64,000 bases of DNA from a virus (Duplodnaviria > Caudoviricetes): the IMG/VR virus record IMGVR_UViG_3300037466_003648, positions 64,001-128,000 of that record; one strand, 5' to 3'. Under the pieces are notes generated by a model. The model saw only the letters and a list, made by a program, of their open reading frames with translations. It was not told the DNA's origin and ran no database searches. This document shows positions 18,547 through 23,791 of the stretch, in pieces; positions within the stretch are counted from its first letter, which is position 1; every line of letters starts with the position of its first letter. A program made the position numbers and the translations under genes.

Positions 18547-19215
18547 ATGAACATCCAAGAGTACCAGCTTGCCGCCGAGAAGACCTCGCCCGCCTATGGG
18601 TTGGTGGCGACGCCCTTGTCGCGTGAAGTTGACGGTGTCATGGTCCTGCACTACGGCATCGTTCCTCGGGACCAGGGTGCGAGCCGCGCTGCCTGGCGTC
18701 TGGCGAACGGCATTGCCGGGCTGGGCTCCGAGTCCTGCGAGCTGGTTGCCTTGACCCTCGACTGGGACAACCAGTTCCCGGACCTGTCGACGATCACCGC
18801 GGCCGACGAGGAAGAGCTGGTCAACCTGGTCAAGAAGGAGTTGGGGGACATCGCCTGGTACATCGCGGAGTCCGCGAGCGCCATGGGCTTCAACCTCGGC
18901 GGCATCACGAACTGGTCGAACGTCCTCGTGGACCACTGTGACTGGGGTCTCAACGCCCTGCAGGTCGCCAAGTACGCGGGTGGGGCGGCCGACTACTTCA
19001 AGAAGCTGGCGTGGCACGACAAGACCATCGACTGGGCCACGGTCGAGAGCCACTTCGCCTGTGCGCTGGGGGCCATCGCCATCCTCGCGAAGACGCTGGG
19101 CTTCACGATCGAGGACGTCCTCGACGCCAACATCGCGAAGTTGTCCGTCCGCTACGAGAAGGGCTTCTCCGGCACCACTTCGGAAGCGCGAGTCGATCTC
19201 GCCGCGGGGGCTTGA
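18547..19215 (+). CDS. MazG-like NTP pyrophosphohydrolase
   Basis: GLGSESCE, KKELGDIAWY, LDANIAKLSVRY. Confidence 0.8.
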   Translation: MNIQEYQLAAEKTSPAYGLVATPLSREVDGVMVLHYGIVPRDQGASRAAWRLANGIAGLGSESCELVALTLDWDNQFPDLSTITAADEEELVNLVKKELGDIAWYIAESASAMGFNLGGITNWSNVLVDHCDWGLNALQVAKYAGGAADYFKKLAWHDKTIDWATVESHFACALGAIAILAKTLGFTIEDVLDANIAKLSVRYEKGFSGTTSEARVDLAAGA

Positions 19216-19241
19216 CAACCAAGGGCACTTCCGCTTAGGAT
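19212..19241 (+). promoter_or_regulatory. sigma70-like promoter P1 of the RNA island
   Basis: TTGACA 19212-19217, 18 nt, TAGGAT 19236-19241. Confidence 0.65.
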
Positions 19242-19957: not shown

Positions 19958-20030
19958 GGCGGAGTGGGCCAGCGGCTACGCCGGGAGTCTCATAAGCTCC
20001 AGATCGAGGGTTCGAGTCCCTCCTCCGCCC
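19958..20030 (+). tRNA. tRNA-Met/Ile2 (CAT), elongator type
   Basis: GGCGGAG/CTCCGCC acceptor, GGAGT-ctCATaa-GCTCC, TTCGAGT loop. Confidence 0.9.
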
Positions 20031-20061
20031 CCTAATCGTACCTTGACAACCTAACACACTA

Positions 20062-20153
20062 GGGCAGATGGTCGAGAGGCCGATGGCACCTGTTTCGAAA
20101 ACAGGAGGCCGGTGTAACAAGCCGGTCCGGGGGTTCGAATCCCTCTCTGCCCG
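20062..20153 (+). tRNA. tRNA-Ser(CGA)
   Basis: cloverleaf with long variable arm, G73. Confidence 0.92.
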
Positions 20154-20161
20154 CTTAACTT

Positions 20162-20247
20162 GGGTGGTTGGCAGAGAGGCCGATCGCGCGACTTTGCTAA
20201 AGTCGTGACCTCTATGGGGTCCGTGGGTTCGACTCCCACACCACCCG
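20162..20247 (+). tRNA. tRNA-Ser(GCT)
   Basis: cloverleaf with long variable arm, G73. Confidence 0.92.
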
Positions 20248-20250
20248 CCT

Positions 20251-20326
20251 TGGTCTGTAGCTCAACTAGCAGAGTGCTGGATTCTGACTCCAGAGGTTGC
20301 GGGTGCGAGTCCCGTCAGACCTGCCA
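20251..20326 (+). tRNA. tRNA-Gln(CTG)
   Basis: cloverleaf, encoded CCA, T-loop TGCGAGT. Confidence 0.88.
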
Positions 20327-20331
20327 TCAAT

Positions 20332-20404
20332 GGTCCTATCGTTCAGAGGCCAAGGACGCCGCATTGTCAATGCGGTAACACGGGTTCGAATCCCGTTAGG
20401 ACCG
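20332..20404 (+). tRNA. tRNA-Asp(GTC)
   Basis: cloverleaf parsed by hand. Confidence 0.92.
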
Positions 20405-20408
20405 CCTC

Positions 20409-20467
20409 GGGCATCGCCTACCCAGACCGTGGTGACGCGGCGTAAGTAGGAGCAACGGTGTCCACCA
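20409..20467 (+). ncRNA. armless Ala-identity (G3:U70, A73, CCA) minihelix-like RNA
   Basis: GGGCATCG/CGGTGTCC stem followed by ACCA; inner CCTAC/GTAGG stem; no D, T or anticodon arm. Confidence 0.55.
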
Positions 20468-20471
20468 ATAT

Positions 20472-20544
20472 GCGCGTGGAGCTGGGTTGGTTCAGCGCCG
20501 CCTTGCCAAGGCGGAGTCCACGGGTTCGATCCCCGTTACGCGCT
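20472..20544 (+). tRNA. tRNA-Gly(GCC)
   Basis: cloverleaf, U73. Confidence 0.92.
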
Positions 20545-20549
20545 CTCAT

Positions 20550-20621
20550 TGCTACGTAGCACAGCGGTAGTGCGGCGCACTGTTAATGCGAAGGTCGCTG
20601 GTTCGATCCCAGCCGTAGCAG
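20550..20621 (+). tRNA. tRNA-Asn(GTT)
   Basis: cloverleaf, G73. Confidence 0.92.
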
Positions 20622-20626
20622 CCTAT

Positions 20627-20698
20627 GCCCCAGTAGCTCAATGGCAGAGCGTCTGCCTTTGGAGCAGATGGTTGTCCGTTCAAGTCGGACCTGGGGTT
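20627..20698 (+). tRNA. tRNA-Gln(TTG)
   Basis: cloverleaf parsed by hand. Confidence 0.88.
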
Positions 20699-20709
20699 CT
20701 CAAGTTCCT

Positions 20710-20782
20710 GGTGATGTAGCTCAACAGGTAGAGCAAGCTCTTGATAAGGGCTAGGTCGGAGGTTCGAGTCCTCCCGTCACCA
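20710..20782 (+). tRNA. tRNA-Ile(GAT)
   Basis: cloverleaf, A73. Confidence 0.92.
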
Positions 20783-20790
20783 CCTCAAGA

Positions 20791-20925
20791 CGGTCGCGGG
20801 TAGCCAAATGGGTTTAAAAGTACCCGGCGGACGAGCGGCTGGTGTTCCTACGGGACCCGGTCATCCGCCTCGACGGTCTGATCTAGCGGAAGGACGCTCC
20901 GCAAGTGGGTGAGAATCCCACACCC
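20791..20925 (+). ncRNA. structured RNA ending in D-arm/T-arm-like elements
   Basis: GGGTA/TACCC; GGCGGA/TCCGCC stem with cTACGg loop; GTGGG-TGAGAAT-CCCAC T-arm-like hairpin. Confidence 0.45.
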
Positions 20926-20928
20926 TTT

Positions 20929-20999
20929 GGGTCTATAGCTCAATGGCAGAGCTGCCGACTCTTAATCGGTAGATCAGAGTTCGACTCTCTGTGGACCCA
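20929..20999 (+). tRNA. tRNA-Lys(CTT)
   Basis: cloverleaf parsed by hand. Confidence 0.92.
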
Positions 21000-21003
21000 C
21001 TCC

Positions 21004-21075
21004 GCCGGTGTGGCTCAATGGTACAGCAGTTGATTTGTAATCAACCACCTCTCGGTTCAAGTCCGGGTACCGGCA
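21004..21075 (+). tRNA. tRNA-Thr(TGT)
   Basis: cloverleaf parsed by hand. Confidence 0.92.
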
Positions 21076-21088
21076 TCGCACAGTTCTC

Positions 21089-21161
21089 GCTGGTGTAGCT
21101 CAGTTGGTAGAGCGGCTGCTTCGTAAGCAGCGGGTCACGAGTTCGATTCTTGTCACCAGCA
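21089..21161 (+). tRNA. tRNA-Thr(CGT)
   Basis: cloverleaf parsed by hand. Confidence 0.93.
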
Positions 21162-21166
21162 CCTAC

Positions 21167-21238
21167 GGTCGTCTGGCGCAACGGTGGCGCGGCTCCTTTA
21201 CACGGAGAGGGTTCAGGGTTCGAGTCCCTGGATGACCA
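21167..21238 (+). tRNA. tRNA-Val(TAC)
   Basis: cloverleaf parsed by hand. Confidence 0.92.
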
Positions 21239-21242
21239 CTAA

Positions 21243-21314
21243 CGGAATGTACGCAAGGGGTATGCGGTCTGCTTTGGGAGCAGGAAGTCGGGGGTTCAAA
21301 TCCCTCCATTCCGA
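21243..21314 (+). tRNA. tRNA-Pro(TGG)
   Basis: cloverleaf, C1:G72, A73. Confidence 0.92.
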
Positions 21315-21319
21315 CCTTT

Positions 21320-21401
21320 GGGGGTATAAGGGCTGTCGATTCGGTGAAAGCCCCATGCGGGAACGCCGAAGACCTGGGTTCAATTCCCAGTACCTCCACC
21401 A
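21320..21401 (+). ncRNA. tmRNA-like RNA reduced to the tRNA-like domain (no tag reading frame)
   Basis: GGGGGTA/TACCTCC with G3:U70, stemless D-loop ending TCGA, helix TTCGGTG/CGCCGAA, GAC linker, CTGGG-TTCAATT-CCCAG, ACCA. Confidence 0.8.
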
Positions 21402-21404
21402 ACG

Positions 21405-21541
21405 ACAGGGGCAACAAGGTGACCTGACCTTCCCCTACGCACCGCTCAAGGCCGTGTGGTTACAGGTGACGCTCGGGAGAGGACACCCGCTGATGGCTTG
21501 CCTCGCGGACACCGGGTGACAGTCGGGAATAGACCGGCACC
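21405..21541 (+). ncRNA. unassigned structured spacer RNA
   Basis: nested AGGGG/CCCCT and AAGGT/ACCTT; 3' GTCGG-GAATAGA-CCGGC hairpin. Confidence 0.3.
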
Positions 21542-21547
21542 TTTCAC

Positions 21548-21619
21548 GCCCGTTCAGCTCGTCGGTCGAGCATCTCCTTGACATGGAGAAGGCGGCTGGT
21601 TCAACTCCAGCAACGGGCT
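21548..21619 (+). tRNA. tRNA-Val(GAC)
   Basis: cloverleaf; U73 is atypical. Confidence 0.88.
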
Positions 21620-21625
21620 CTACAC

Positions 21626-21701
21626 GCCGTGACAGTCTGACTGGACAGATCTCTGGCCTTCATCCAGAGGGAAGCGGGTTCGAGTCCCGCACGCGGCACC
21701 A
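21626..21701 (+). tRNA. tRNA-Glu(TTC), atypical (C33)
   Basis: TCTGG-ccTTCat-CCAGA, encoded CCA, one acceptor mismatch. Confidence 0.75.
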
Positions 21702-21713
21702 TCAACAAATCAT

Positions 21714-21788
21714 GCCCCGGCAGACTGCTCGGCAGGGTCGCCAGGTTCTCAACCTGGAGGTAGGTGGGTTCGAATCCCCCGCGGGGTG
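21714..21788 (+). tRNA. tRNA-Glu(CTC)
   Basis: CCAGG-ttCTCaa-CCTGG; mismatches in the acceptor and T stems. Confidence 0.78.
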
Positions 21789-21795
21789 CCTTAGT

Positions 21796-21922
21796 CCTAC
21801 GTTAGCTTCAAGCCGTATCGAGAGGTGCGGACACCGCCTGGGTGACCAGGATAGTCGGTGGGTTAGAGCGACCCAGGATTCTGTGCCTGGGGAGGTTGTC
21901 GGTTCGAGTCCGGGGCGTAGGA
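21796..21922 (+). ncRNA. tRNA-like RNA with a 57-nt D-loop and 8-nt anticodon loop
   Basis: CCTACGT/GCGTAGG acceptor, TA, D-stem GCTT/GAGC, CCCAGG/CCTGGG stem, TTCGAGT loop. Confidence 0.7.
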
Positions 21923-21929
21923 TACTAAC

Positions 21930-21996
21930 GGGAGATGGCAGATCCTTCCGATAGGCTGCAGGGCGGGCAACCGCCGTAAGTGCAAAACTGCCACCC
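21930..21996 (+). ncRNA. small structured spacer RNA
   Basis: TGGCAG/CTGCCA closing stem; GGCGG-GCAA-CCGCC GNRA hairpin. Confidence 0.3.
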
Positions 21997-22002
21997 TTCA
22001 AT

Positions 22003-22075
22003 GCGGTAGTAGCTCAGTTGGCAGAGCGCGTGCCTTCCAAGCATGATGTCGCAGGTTCGAAGCCTGTCTACCGCA
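22003..22075 (+). tRNA. tRNA-Gly(TCC)
   Basis: cloverleaf parsed by hand. Confidence 0.92.
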
Positions 22076-22104
22076 CCTGGTCGTAGCAAGAGAAGGAGAT
22101 CGCC

Positions 22105-22266
22105 ATGGCACATTACAAGCGGAAGAAGCAGAAGGAACGGGTTCGTCGGACCAGCGGCTACGACACGGAGAAGGTCCGAGCCTCTTACCACGGATGGCAC
22201 GCCTTGCTGCCTGCCATCCGTCTGCAGATGATCAAGGTCAAGGAAGAGCTGCGCGACGCAGCGTAA
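22105..22266 (+). CDS. small basic protein (53 aa) inside the tRNA array
   Basis: AAGGAG SD; MAHYKRKKQKERVRR... Confidence 0.6.
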   Translation: MAHYKRKKQKERVRRTSGYDTEKVRASYHGWHALLPAIRLQMIKVKEELRDAA

Positions 22267-22271
22267 GTTAT

Positions 22272-22411
22272 GGCCGGGTAGCTCAAGAGTAGAGCGCGAG
22301 CCTGATAAGCTCGTCTTCGTTGCGTAGTGGACACTGATCAACCACGGTAGCAACGAAGCGGTTGGAGGTCGCTCCTTCAACTGATGCCGGTGACGACTCC
22401 GGCCCTGGCCG
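22272..22411 (+). ncRNA. tRNA-like RNA (GAT anticodon) with a 72-nt two-hairpin variable region
   Basis: GGCCGGG/CCTGGCC acceptor, normal D arm, CGAGC-ctGATaa-GCTCG, GCCGG-TGACGACT-CCGGC, G73. Confidence 0.72.
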
Positions 22412-22426
22412 CCCTTCACAACATCT

Positions 22427-22499
22427 GGGCCTGTAGCTCCAATGGTAGAGCAGCTCCTTTGCAAGGAAAGGGTTGGCGGTTCGAGTCCGCCCAGGTCCA
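22427..22499 (+). tRNA. tRNA-Ala(TGC)
   Basis: G3:U70, A73; weak anticodon stem. Confidence 0.85.
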
Positions 22500-22501
22500 C
22501 T

Positions 22502-22610
22502 GGTTCTCACGACGTCCCGTGAACCTTGTTCGAACTGTTGCAACAGTTCGAACAAGGGTAGATGACAGGGATCAAAGCGCTGAAAGGTAAGCCGCGTCGT
22601 GAGAACCGCC
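22502..22610 (+). ncRNA. structured RNA with a 13-bp terminal stem and 34-bp perfect palindrome
   Basis: 22502-22514 pairs with 22595-22607; palindrome at 22524-22557. Confidence 0.5.
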
Positions 22611-22613
22611 CTT

Positions 22614-22686
22614 GGTCGGGTAGCTCCAACGGTAGAGCAGGCGCCTGAAAAGTGCCGTGTTGTCGGTTCGAGTCCGACCCCGACCA
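22614..22686 (+). tRNA. tRNA-Phe(GAA)
   Basis: cloverleaf parsed by hand. Confidence 0.92.
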
Positions 22687-22703
22687 CTCTTTTGATCCAG
22701 GGG

Positions 22704-22733
22704 TTGACAGATCCCATCTATGTGTGTTAGGGT
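22704..22733 (+). promoter_or_regulatory. internal promoter of the tRNA array
   Basis: TTGACA 22704-22709, 18 nt, TG-n-TAGGGT 22728-22733. Confidence 0.7.
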
Positions 22734-22867
22734 TGTCCAACTATGAACGCCGTGATCGCCAACTTGCTGTTGCTAGCCCTGCCGGTTGCAGGGTATCGAC
22801 GCTGGCGACATTCTTCTTGCGGCGGTCGACTTACCCTGCATCTGGCGTAACCTCTTCACTCCTTTCT

Positions 22868-22950
22868 CGGGACGTGGCGAAATGGCAGATGCGCCTGGCT
22901 CAGAACCAGGTGGGCGAAAGCCCGTGGGAGTTCGACTCTCCCCGTCCCGA
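22868..22950 (+). tRNA. tRNA-Leu(CAG)
   Basis: cloverleaf with variable arm, A73. Confidence 0.92.
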
Positions 22951-22954
22951 CTCT

Positions 22955-23037
22955 GCGGATGTGGCGTAATGGCAGATGCGCACGCCTGAGTAGCGTGTGA
23001 GCGTAAGCTCGTGTGAGTTCGAGTCTCACCGTCCGCA
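22955..23037 (+). tRNA. tRNA-Leu(GAG)
   Basis: cloverleaf with variable arm. Confidence 0.92.
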
Positions 23038-23043
23038 CTACAA

Positions 23044-23126
23044 GTCGGGATGATGAAATGGCAGCCTTGGTGGTCTCAAAAACCGCTGTCCGTAAGGACG
23101 TGGGGGTTCGACTCCCCCTCCCGGCA
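23044..23126 (+). tRNA. tRNA-Leu(CAA)
   Basis: cloverleaf with variable arm. Confidence 0.88.
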
Positions 23127-23149
23127 CTCTTCCAGTACCTTGACAATCT

Positions 23150-23224
23150 GTGCCCGCAGCTCGATGGACGAGCACTCCCCTCCGAAGGGAGCGGTTGCGC
23201 GTTCGAGTCGCGCCGGGCACGCCA
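23150..23224 (+). tRNA. tRNA-Arg(CCG)
   Basis: cloverleaf, encoded CCA. Confidence 0.92.
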
Positions 23225-23225
23225 T

Positions 23226-23298
23226 GTGCGTGTAGTTCAAACGGAAGAACGTCGGCCTCCTAAGCTGACGGTTGCTGGTTCGAGTCCAGCCGCGCACT
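23226..23298 (+). tRNA. tRNA-Arg(CCT)
   Basis: cloverleaf parsed by hand. Confidence 0.9.
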
Positions 23299-23302
23299 CT
23301 AA

Positions 23303-23375
23303 GCCCGCATAGCTCAATTGGACAGAGCACTGGTCTACGAAGCCGGGGACGTAGGTTCGACTCCTACTGTGGGTG
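23303..23375 (+). tRNA. tRNA-Arg(ACG)
   Basis: cloverleaf parsed by hand. Confidence 0.9.
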
Positions 23376-23379
23376 CTGT

Positions 23380-23451
23380 GGTGACTGTAGGCTAACGGTA
23401 AGCCGCCTGATTGTGGATCAGGTGATGCGGGTTCGATCCCCGTCAGTCACA
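23380..23451 (+). tRNA. tRNA-His(GTG)
   Basis: cloverleaf with encoded G-1; A73 rather than the usual bacterial C73. Confidence 0.9.
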
Positions 23452-23456
23452 CCTAT

Positions 23457-23537
23457 GCCAGTATGGGTGAGTAGCAATACCGGCTGCCTGTAAAGCAGCT
23501 CCCTCTGGGTTCCCTGGTGCAAGTCCAGGTGCTGGCA
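23457..23537 (+). tRNA. tRNA-Tyr(GTA)
   Basis: cloverleaf with variable arm; T-loop TGCAAGT. Confidence 0.88.
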
Positions 23538-23543
23538 CTCCAT

Positions 23544-23614
23544 CTACCGGTAGCCAAGTAGTAAGGTAGCGGTCTGCAAAACCGCCAGCGTGGGTGCGAT
23601 TCCCACCCGGTAGT
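23544..23614 (+). tRNA. tRNA-Cys(GCA)
   Basis: cloverleaf, U73; T-loop TGCGATT. Confidence 0.88.
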
Positions 23615-23618
23615 CTCT

Positions 23619-23690
23619 GCGTCGTAAAGATTACGGTAGTCGGCTGGTCTCCAAAACCAGCAGCGGTGGGTTCGACTCCCCCACGATGCG
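23619..23690 (+). tRNA. tRNA-Trp(CCA)
   Basis: cloverleaf, G73. Confidence 0.88.
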
Positions 23691-23697
23691 CTCTCTT

Positions 23698-23781
23698 GGT
23701 TGGTAGGGTTCAGTGGTGAGCACCACCGTCGGAAGCGGTGGCCGGGTGTCACAGCCTTCGGTTCGACTCCGATGCCAACCG
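23698..23781 (+). tRNA. tRNA-Ser(GGA), 8/4 architecture
   Basis: 8-bp acceptor GGTTGGTA/TGCCAACC, 4-bp T stem TCGG/CCGA, variable arm, G73. Confidence 0.75.
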
Positions 23782-23791
23782 CCTCATCCCC

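Follow-up and report, generated by a model that had tools for sequence, protein, structure and literature searches.

AlaRS-charged minihelices have served for 35 years as laboratory constructs and as models of primordial tRNA. A 59-nt stretch between two tRNA genes of a phage tRNA array raises the question of whether an RNA of this type is also encoded in nature. The sequence-only reading of this locus had described an armless RNA with full alanine identity and an encoded CCA, and had suggested a natural minihelix that can be alanylated. Here we ask whether the element is a real RNA gene, how much of the alanine identity it carries, where its acceptor end came from and what it may do.

The 59-nt rod and its acceptor end

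The window, which is the whole 64,000-nt stretch of DNA that was analysed, corresponds to bases 64001-128000 of a viral contig that is 205,180 bp long, has direct terminal repeats and is rated complete. The G+C content is 62% and the genes lie on the + strand. Nearly identical DNA is present in soil and rhizosphere metagenomes. Among cultured phages, no close relative was found (the best DNA polymerase identity is 27% or lower) and there was no DNA match to the 59-nt element. The element lies in a tRNA array (Table 1), in which the spacers between tRNAs are elsewhere typically 3-13 nt. The base after the discriminator is C in 29 of 30 tRNAs of this array, mostly as CT or CCT and in three cases as CCA; thus, position 74 alone seems to be kept. 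The array also contains a small ORF of 53 codons (22105-22266), which has a GGAGA-type ribosome-binding site and codes for a basic peptide; the gene calls of the strain contigs include it as well. A further slot-filler, a 110-nt element with a 13-bp closing stem (22502-22611), is placed between tRNA-Ala and tRNA-Phe.

As shown in Table 1, the element fills its tRNA slot exactly, with 4 nt to the discriminator of tRNA-Asp and 4 nt to tRNA-Gly. The eight pairs of the closing stem are G-C, G-C, G.U, C-G, A-U, U.G, C-G and G-C. RNAfold gave an unbranched rod with a minimum free energy of -25.8 kcal/mol (z = -2.17), and the same rod was obtained when the element was folded along with both flanking tRNAs. 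Thus, the sequence and RNAfold confirmed what had been read from the letters, namely paired 8-nt strands followed by A73 and CCA between tRNA-Asp and tRNA-Gly, and an interior made of a CCTAC/GTAGG rod and an apical hairpin without D, anticodon and T arms. A T-loop motif is also absent from the sequence. Neither ARAGORN nor Rfam (E ≤ 10) called a tRNA, a tmRNA or another family at 20409-20467. The canonical cloverleaf model (RF00005) did not match at E ≤ 10; the rod is unbranched and its apical loop is only 4 nt. Two other readings were rejected: an armless tRNA, because a 7-nt loop on a 5-bp stem cannot be drawn, and a terminator, because no T run follows the rod and no terminator-like site is nearby.

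A minimal RNase P substrate has a coaxial helix of about 12 bp, G+1 and a 3' RCCA. The rod possesses a stack of 8 + 5 bp, G+1 and ACCA, but it also has a 5-nt bulge in the 3' strand, and its base at -1 is C as against the preferred U. It should be mentioned that a helix-junction bulge on the 3' strand is the reverse of what tRNA topology has, and EF-Tu or RNase P may be impeded by it.

Table 1. Features of the tRNA array and of the 59-nt rod (window coordinates), and G3:C70 minihelices on other contigs (contig coordinates)
Feature	Position	Strand	Basis and remarks
Promoter-like site	19212-19241		upstream of the tRNA array
tRNA array	19958-23783	+	3.8 kb; 32 tRNA genes (ARAGORN), 30 tRNAs (Rfam)
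tRNA-Asp(GUC)	20332-20404	+	upstream neighbour; ends at discriminator 20404, CCT next, CCA not encoded; ARAGORN, Rfam 62.8 bits
Spacer CCTC, 4 nt	20405-20408	+	sequence; putative RNase P cut at 20408/20409; TCTC in L022
Acceptor-like stem, 5' strand (G1 G2 G3 C4 A5 U6 C7 G8), GGGCATCG	20409-20416	+	sequence, RNAfold
Helix 2, 5' strand CCUAC	20417-20421	+	RNAfold; runs on from the acceptor 5' strand; 2 pairs compensated in L022
Internal loop, 5' side CCAGA	20422-20426	+	RNAfold; CCA.A common to L022
Apical 5-bp hairpin (20427-20431 with 20436-20440)	20427-20440	+	RNAfold; GUGA (GNRA) tetraloop 20432-20435; 2 pairs compensated in L022
Internal loop, 3' side CGUAA	20441-20445	+	RNAfold; loop 5x5
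Helix 2, 3' strand GUAGG	20446-20450	+	RNAfold
Bulge AGCAA, 5 nt, 3' strand	20451-20455	+	RNAfold; between helix 2 and the acceptor 3' strand; ACCAA in L022
Acceptor-like stem, 3' strand, CGGTGTCC	20456-20463	+	sequence, RNAfold; U70 at 20461
Discriminator A73 (20464) and genomically encoded CCA (20465-20467)	20464-20467	+	sequence; invariant in L022
Trailer ATAT, 4 nt	20468-20471	+	sequence; before tRNA-Gly
tRNA-Gly(GCC)	20472-20544	+	downstream neighbour; ARAGORN, Rfam
TLD-only mini-tmRNA	21320-21401	+	82 nt; Rfam RF00023 43.2 bits (gathering 47), E 5.5e-15
tRNA-Ala(UGC)	22427-22499	+	ARAGORN; 7-bp acceptor stem GGGCCUG/CAGGUCC
G3:C70 minihelix	L330:10111-10163	-	all eight G3:C70 minihelices listed, 42-69 nt
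G3:C70 minihelix	L337:5621-5670
G3:C70 minihelix	L343:1801-1850	-
G3:C70 minihelix	L339:6075-6124
G3:C70 minihelix	L341:13089-13157	-
G3:C70 minihelix	L346:2384-2445	-
G3:C70 minihelix	L353:3452-3493	-	42 nt
G3:C70 minihelix	L355:2925-2967	-

The bacterial alanine identity set consists of G3:U70, A73 and G2:C71, with G4:C69 and G20 as minor determinants (PMC9976931), and AlaRS charges minihelices via G3:U70, as summarised there from refs 110-111. The claim of full alanine identity was too strong, although the major determinants are there: in the rod, G3 (20411) pairs with U70 (T at 20461), and G2:C71 and A73 are present. In contrast, the minor determinants are missing. Pair 4 is C:G instead of G4:C69, both in this rod and its homologue described below and in the tRNA-Ala of the window, and G20 is absent, as the rod has no D loop. 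The statement that few tRNAs of the array encode CCA also held (three of 30 by Rfam, three of 32 by ARAGORN), and none of the five tRNAs on the contig that carries the homologue, L022, encodes it. When the two arrays were taken together, CCA was encoded in three of three alanine-type non-decoding elements (two rods and a mini-tmRNA) as against 3 of 37 tRNAs (Fisher p = 0.002).

Could the rod be a chance hairpin within a long spacer? When the 67-nt spacer was shuffled 2,000,000 times, a slot-filling 7-bp closure with NCCA appeared at a frequency of 1.5e-3, the same with G3:U70 at 2e-4, and the strict slot-filling set (G1:C72, G2:C71, G3:U70, A73 and CCA) at 1.5e-6. In 410 kb (both strands of the genome) the strict set occurs at three sites, and two of them, the rod and the mini-tmRNA, are inside the 3.8-kb array. 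What speaks for chance is that looser forms are common. A loose motif, in which the 7 bp may include G.U pairs and G3:U70, A73 and CCA are required, has 58 sites in the genome, as against about 24 in Markov shuffles, and exact acceptor-strand patterns match coding DNA at about the expected chance rate. With a free interior, these patterns gave three matches in IMG/VR, all in coding DNA without tRNAs, and at least 120 in JGI metagenomes; among those listed, all are in coding-like DNA and none has a related interior or is beside a tRNA. Therefore, matches to a sequence pattern without context mean nothing. The rarity of the strict set among the shuffles, however, and the structural homologue in the array of a related phage argue strongly against chance. 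Thus, the shuffles and the covariation comparison effectively refute the chance hairpin, whose probability we take to be minute.

A homologue in a related phage and the origin of the acceptor end

A DNA polymerase search over 5.8 billion proteins found two relatives at 78% identity and a few at 50-64%. A covariance model (R1) built from the window rod alone matched positions 741-798 of L022, a contig from a phage with 78% DNA polymerase identity, over the full length with 27.1 bits (E from 6e-5 to 1e-3, depending on the search space). The model had no further match in the genome that holds the window or in five more distant viral genomes. The L022 contig starts inside its tRNA array, of which at least five tRNAs are seen; contig L296 of the same sample ends short of the 5' part of this array. 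The homologue is 58 nt long, begins 4 nt after tRNA-Pro(UGG) and ends with ACCA. It folds alone into the same rod (z = -1.73, a modest value, as is that of the window rod), with a 7-bp acceptor stem, helix 2, a 5-bp hairpin and a 5-nt 3' bulge; its internal loop is 4x4 and its apical loop is GAUAA.

In the model alignment, the two rods are 65% identical and 97% of the pair cells hold standard pairs. Five of the 18 pairs are changed on both sides, and these are distributed over all three helices, whereas six slid-register controls gave no compensated pairs. Column shuffles reached the observed covariation score in 15 of 500 cases, in a comparison of only two distinct sequences. Both copies have the same pairs 1-4, A73 and CCA. 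G.U pairs occur at four places in one copy or the other; only G3:U70 is common to both, and the other three are lineage-specific. These results are evidence, from two sequences, that the rod fold and the acceptor/CCA end are under selection. The sequence-only reading had named covariation in relatives and conservation of the G:U pair and ACCA as points on which the element could be judged; in L022 the G:U pair and ACCA are conserved, and covariation is present but thin.

The strain variants L015-L017 (99.7% identity) and four soil runs have no substitutions in the rod and therefore give no covariation signal. As a separate observation, the tRNA-Gly(GCC) of strain L015 has five differences from that of the window (20497, 20502, 20515, 20520 and 20537), while the flanks including the rod are identical, a pattern suggestive of gene conversion or of an exchanged tRNA allele. 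L015 also lacks 22502-22611: its tRNA-Phe comes about 7 nt after tRNA-Ala, and an ORF of 142 aa is inserted downstream. Thus, even strains with 99.7% identity can differ by the gain or loss of a slot-filler.

Among the relatives other than these strain variants and L022, copies of the rod were not found. The second of the two relatives at 78% polymerase identity, L021/L025, has two tRNAs and no rod copy at the site (L025:6456-7735). Relatives with polymerase identities of 31-64% (L023, L024 and G001-G005) lack the rod and, in most cases, also an array at the syntenic position, and contigs at 60-64% identity have no tRNAs there. The tRNA array at this site is extremely variable among relatives, with 32 tRNAs in the window, at least five in L022, two in L025 and none at 60-64% identity. 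In IMG/VR, an exact 21-mer of the rod and a 20-base consensus pattern of both copies had no matches, and the acceptor pattern of L022 had 68 matches, none of which is homologous by model R2.

The acceptor stem of the L022 rod is the same as that of the window tRNA-Ala(UGC) in seven of seven pairs, and the window rod shares pairs 1-4 and A73 with this tRNA. Therefore, in the simplest view, the acceptor end of the rod would be derived from, or converted by, the phage tRNA-Ala, and tRNA-Ala(UGC) is its likely evolutionary source. A second relationship concerns the slot that has tRNA-Pro(UGG) on one side and a conserved GGGGCA...CCCC hairpin on the other. In L022 (664-890) this slot contains the rod, and in the window (21243-21550) it contains the TLD-only mini-tmRNA, which possesses a G3:U70 acceptor stem, helix 2a, a GAC linker, a T arm and ACCA, with 17 nt in the place of the mRNA-like domain. 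Because the same landmarks surround both, two alanine-marked, CCA-encoding, non-decoding RNAs share one slot in sister phages. As judged from these alignments, the swap of rod and mini-tmRNA is a cassette-like exchange.

CCA-ended minihelices in other phage tRNA arrays

We scanned IMG/VR with a G3:U70 pattern (canonical T loop, 13-17 nt, GGGS, 30-58 nt, S-T-CCACCA) and with a control pattern, in which T at position 70 was replaced by C. The G3:U70 scan gave 32 distinct matches, six of which are closed by at least 6 bp; two of these six have no tRNA context and are probably chance, two are of the TLD type with a T arm, and two are rods without a T arm that abut tRNAs. One of these rods, L318:5361-5406(-), is 46 nt long and has G1:C72, G2:C71, G3:U70, G4:C69, A73, CCA and a GCGA-capped 8-bp hairpin. 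The other, L325:13637-13689(-), is 53 nt long. In addition to the six, a 50-nt rod without a T arm (L308:1451-1500) in a 29-tRNA array exactly fills the slot between tRNA-Ala and tRNA-Leu, although its U70 may be bulged. The two elements of the TLD type are L304:2611-2667 (in a 32-tRNA array) and L320:89-146, and further elements like TLD-only tmRNA were seen at L232:10164-10225 and L264:382-445(-) (RF00023 27 bits, E about 3.6e-7). These four elements, on unrelated contigs, are 57-64 nt long and have a G3:U70 acceptor, a T arm, ACCA and no anticodon arm; three of the four are a few nt from a tRNA.

The G3:C70 control gave 27 distinct matches, nine of them closed. All nine are without a T loop and seven abut a tRNA. 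The minihelices listed in Table 1 have an adjacent tRNA on the same strand, except for L343. For example, the L353 element lies between tRNA-Arg and tRNA-Ser. The L337 and L343 elements are homologous, with two GNRA-type hairpins and compensated changes. Among rods that adjoin tRNA slots, the ratio of G3:U70 to G3:C70 is about 3 to 8, which is not clearly different from the usual ratio of G.U to G-C in helices. A similar pattern had 41 matches in 185,579 prokaryote genomes; not one of them had a 7-bp closure or an adjacent tRNA.

These results indicate that closed, CCA-ended minihelices in tRNA slots are a recurrent phage class, which is not specific to G3:U70. We define this class by a closing stem of at least 7 bp, a discriminator with encoded CCA, no anticodon arm and a distance of at most 12 nt from a tRNA on the same strand; the window rod has all of these features. 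By model R2, none of the other census rods is detectably homologous to it. Because the rods in phage slots are more often G3:C70, the function of the class does not generally need alanine. Thus, the alanine identity is a mark of a subtype and not of the whole class, and it may simply be inherited from a tRNA-Ala ancestor.

Possible roles of the rod and comparison with known systems

The evidence supports a real RNA gene that is derived from a tRNA, lacks an anticodon and combines the major alanine determinants with an encoded CCA. The rod is probably a working non-decoding tRNA mimic. Our main reading, to which we give a probability of about 0.5, is that it is a functional, processed RNA, which acts through its acceptor end as a rod-shaped mimic derived from the phage tRNA-Ala. 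The rod would be transcribed as part of the tRNA array, and host RNase P would cut at 20408/20409. Trimming from the 3' side and RNase P cleavage of the next tRNA would then give a 59-nt RNA that already ends in CCA. We propose that the CCA-adding enzyme works poorly on a rod that lacks a T arm and elbow, which would explain why CCA is encoded. By analogy with synthetic minihelices, host AlaRS should charge the rod via G1:C72, G2:C71, G3:U70 and A73-CCA. Having no anticodon arm and no T arm, the rod cannot decode and cannot bind SmpB, and for this reason it would most likely act through the acceptor end. Charged or not, it could compete for or titrate proteins of tRNA 3' ends, such as AlaRS, EF-Tu and CCA-tail-directed immune effectors.

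Six-frame Pfam searches of the phage at E ≤ 0.1 found no SmpB, CCA-adding enzyme (PolyA_pol) or AlaRS core, and no Acetyltransf_6, Acetyltransf_1 or FemAB. Therefore, processing, any charging and any target must be functions of the host or of proteins beyond these models. Two roles suggested in the sequence-only reading found no support: that of an alanine donor, as the phage has no Fem/GNAT match, and that of a stalled-ribosome effector, as the phage has no SmpB and the rod has no T arm or elbow for SmpB. A precedent for an amino-acid donor is Mom, which uses Gly-tRNA (PMC13219725); no candidate transferase for a Mom-like donor role was found in the phage. It is rather doubtful that alanylation is essential to the role of the rod. 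A more specific proposal is that the rod is the first natural minihelix substrate of AlaRS, charged and working outside decoding as a trans-acting alanine carrier or peptidyl-transferase substrate or as a decoy, and interchangeable with TLD-only tmRNA; we regard this as unlikely. In its decoy version, the charged or uncharged acceptor end would blunt defences that act on tRNA 3' tails (Cas12a3-type nucleases, toxSAS and MenT/AbiEii). Enzymes of the toxSAS and MenT groups are described in outline as acting on tRNA acceptor ends. Cas12a3 cleaves the CCA tails of tRNAs and needs no more of its substrate than a hairpin and a 3' CCA; the authors of that study state that phage countermeasures are unknown (PMC12851939).

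Two other explanations compete with an RNA that acts through its acceptor end. The rod might be a decaying remnant of tRNA-Ala (or of a TLD-only tmRNA), with the interior deleted or replaced, an inherited acceptor end and no function of its own. Such decay would agree with the acceptor stem shared with the phage tRNA-Ala, with the fast turnover of the array among relatives, with the restriction of the rod family to one narrow clade and with the truncated tRNA-Ala remnants, still carrying D-arm remains, in other arrays (L326 and L298). However, the rod retains no sequence trace of D, anticodon and T arms, yet its interior is a stable rod, and this rod is kept in L022 via the five compensated pairs. 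Both copies encode CCA while 34 of the 37 tRNAs of the two arrays do not, and a tRNA-Ala of the present type, which has CTG after A73, would have needed to gain it. Moreover, a compact phage genome is expected to delete dead spacers, as is seen for 22502-22611 in L015. We consider a functionless remnant to be improbable.

We are similarly sceptical of a generic processing or stability module, that is, a punctuation of the array transcript for RNase P and 3'-end recognition in which the alanine marks are incidental. Both flanking tRNAs are complete and have their own RNase P and 3' sites, and the short spacers suffice elsewhere in the array, so no punctuation is needed at the rod. Furthermore, G3:U70 has been retained in both copies, and the remaining G.U pairs have not. 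On the other hand, the wider class shares only the closing stem and NCCA, and its slot-adjacent members favour G3:C70 over G3:U70. There is also a precedent in the t-elements of plant mitochondria, which are outlined as tRNA-like processing signals in PMC1920247.

A conserved natural gene of the type of the AlaRS-charged minihelices would mean that living systems make use of the "operational code" of the acceptor stem by itself. Such a gene would also be a second type of alanine-marked decoy in phage tRNA arrays, beside TLD-only tmRNA. CCA-ended slot minihelices are candidate phage countermeasures to tRNA-tail cleavage such as that by Cas12a3.

How does the rod compare with known systems? The synthetic RNAs minihelix-Ala and microhelix-Ala (Francklyn and Schimmel 1989) are in vitro substrates of AlaRS, as summarised from refs 110-111 in PMC9976931. 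The rod and synthetic minihelix-Ala have in common G3:U70, G2:C71, A73, a single-stranded CCA and the lack of an anticodon. In contrast to the synthetic RNA, the rod is encoded naturally, within a phage tRNA array, its pair 4 is C:G, and its charging is a prediction. Beyond its stem come a bulge in the 3' strand, an internal loop and a hairpin with a GNRA cap, whereas the synthetic minihelix has a T stem-loop there. The TLD-only tmRNA of mycobacteriophage DS6A is thought, in the account given in PMC4131195 (citing Mao et al. 2009), to titrate SmpB. Like this RNA and the mini-tmRNA of the window, the rod is a phage-encoded, alanine-type, CCA-encoding, non-decoding mimic. However, of the TLD features it has only the acceptor stem with G3:U70 and the 3' ACCA. 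The T arm, the D-loop analogue and the helix 2a/GAC signature are all absent, and hence there is no elbow for SmpB binding. Correspondingly, RF00023 does not match at the rod at E ≤ 10, as against 43 bits for the neighbouring 21320-21401.

The tRNA cluster of phage T4 contains small non-tRNA RNAs, the stable RNA species 1 and 2 (rnaC and rnaD), which are matured by the tRNA-processing machinery and are about 120-140 nt long. The rod resembles them as a small non-tRNA RNA gene among phage tRNA genes, but the T4 RNAs are longer, have no sequence relation to the rod and do not possess the alanine identity set. The census minihelices (L318, L325, L308, L330, L337/L343, L353 and L355) resemble the rod in their closure by at least 6-7 bp, encoded CCA and nearby tRNA; they differ in that they are not detectably homologous to it, are mostly G3:C70 and, in several cases, have a T-arm-like hairpin. 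Plant RNA viruses possess 3' tRNA-like structures that can be aminoacylated. These structures and the t-elements share with the rod a tRNA-like acceptor structure outside decoding, and they are recognised by RNase P or Z, the CCA enzyme or synthetases. They act in cis at the ends of mRNAs or genomes, however, and keep T-arm or pseudoknot mimicry, whereas the rod occupies a free-standing slot. A t-element abuts an mRNA end or a start codon; the rod has tRNAs as both neighbours, no abutting ORF and no T arm. In the literature we found no description of a natural alanine-type minihelix gene. While tRNA-like small RNAs in phage tRNA clusters, TLD-only tmRNA and synthetic minihelices are known, the rod-type, T-arm-less and alanine-marked form is new.
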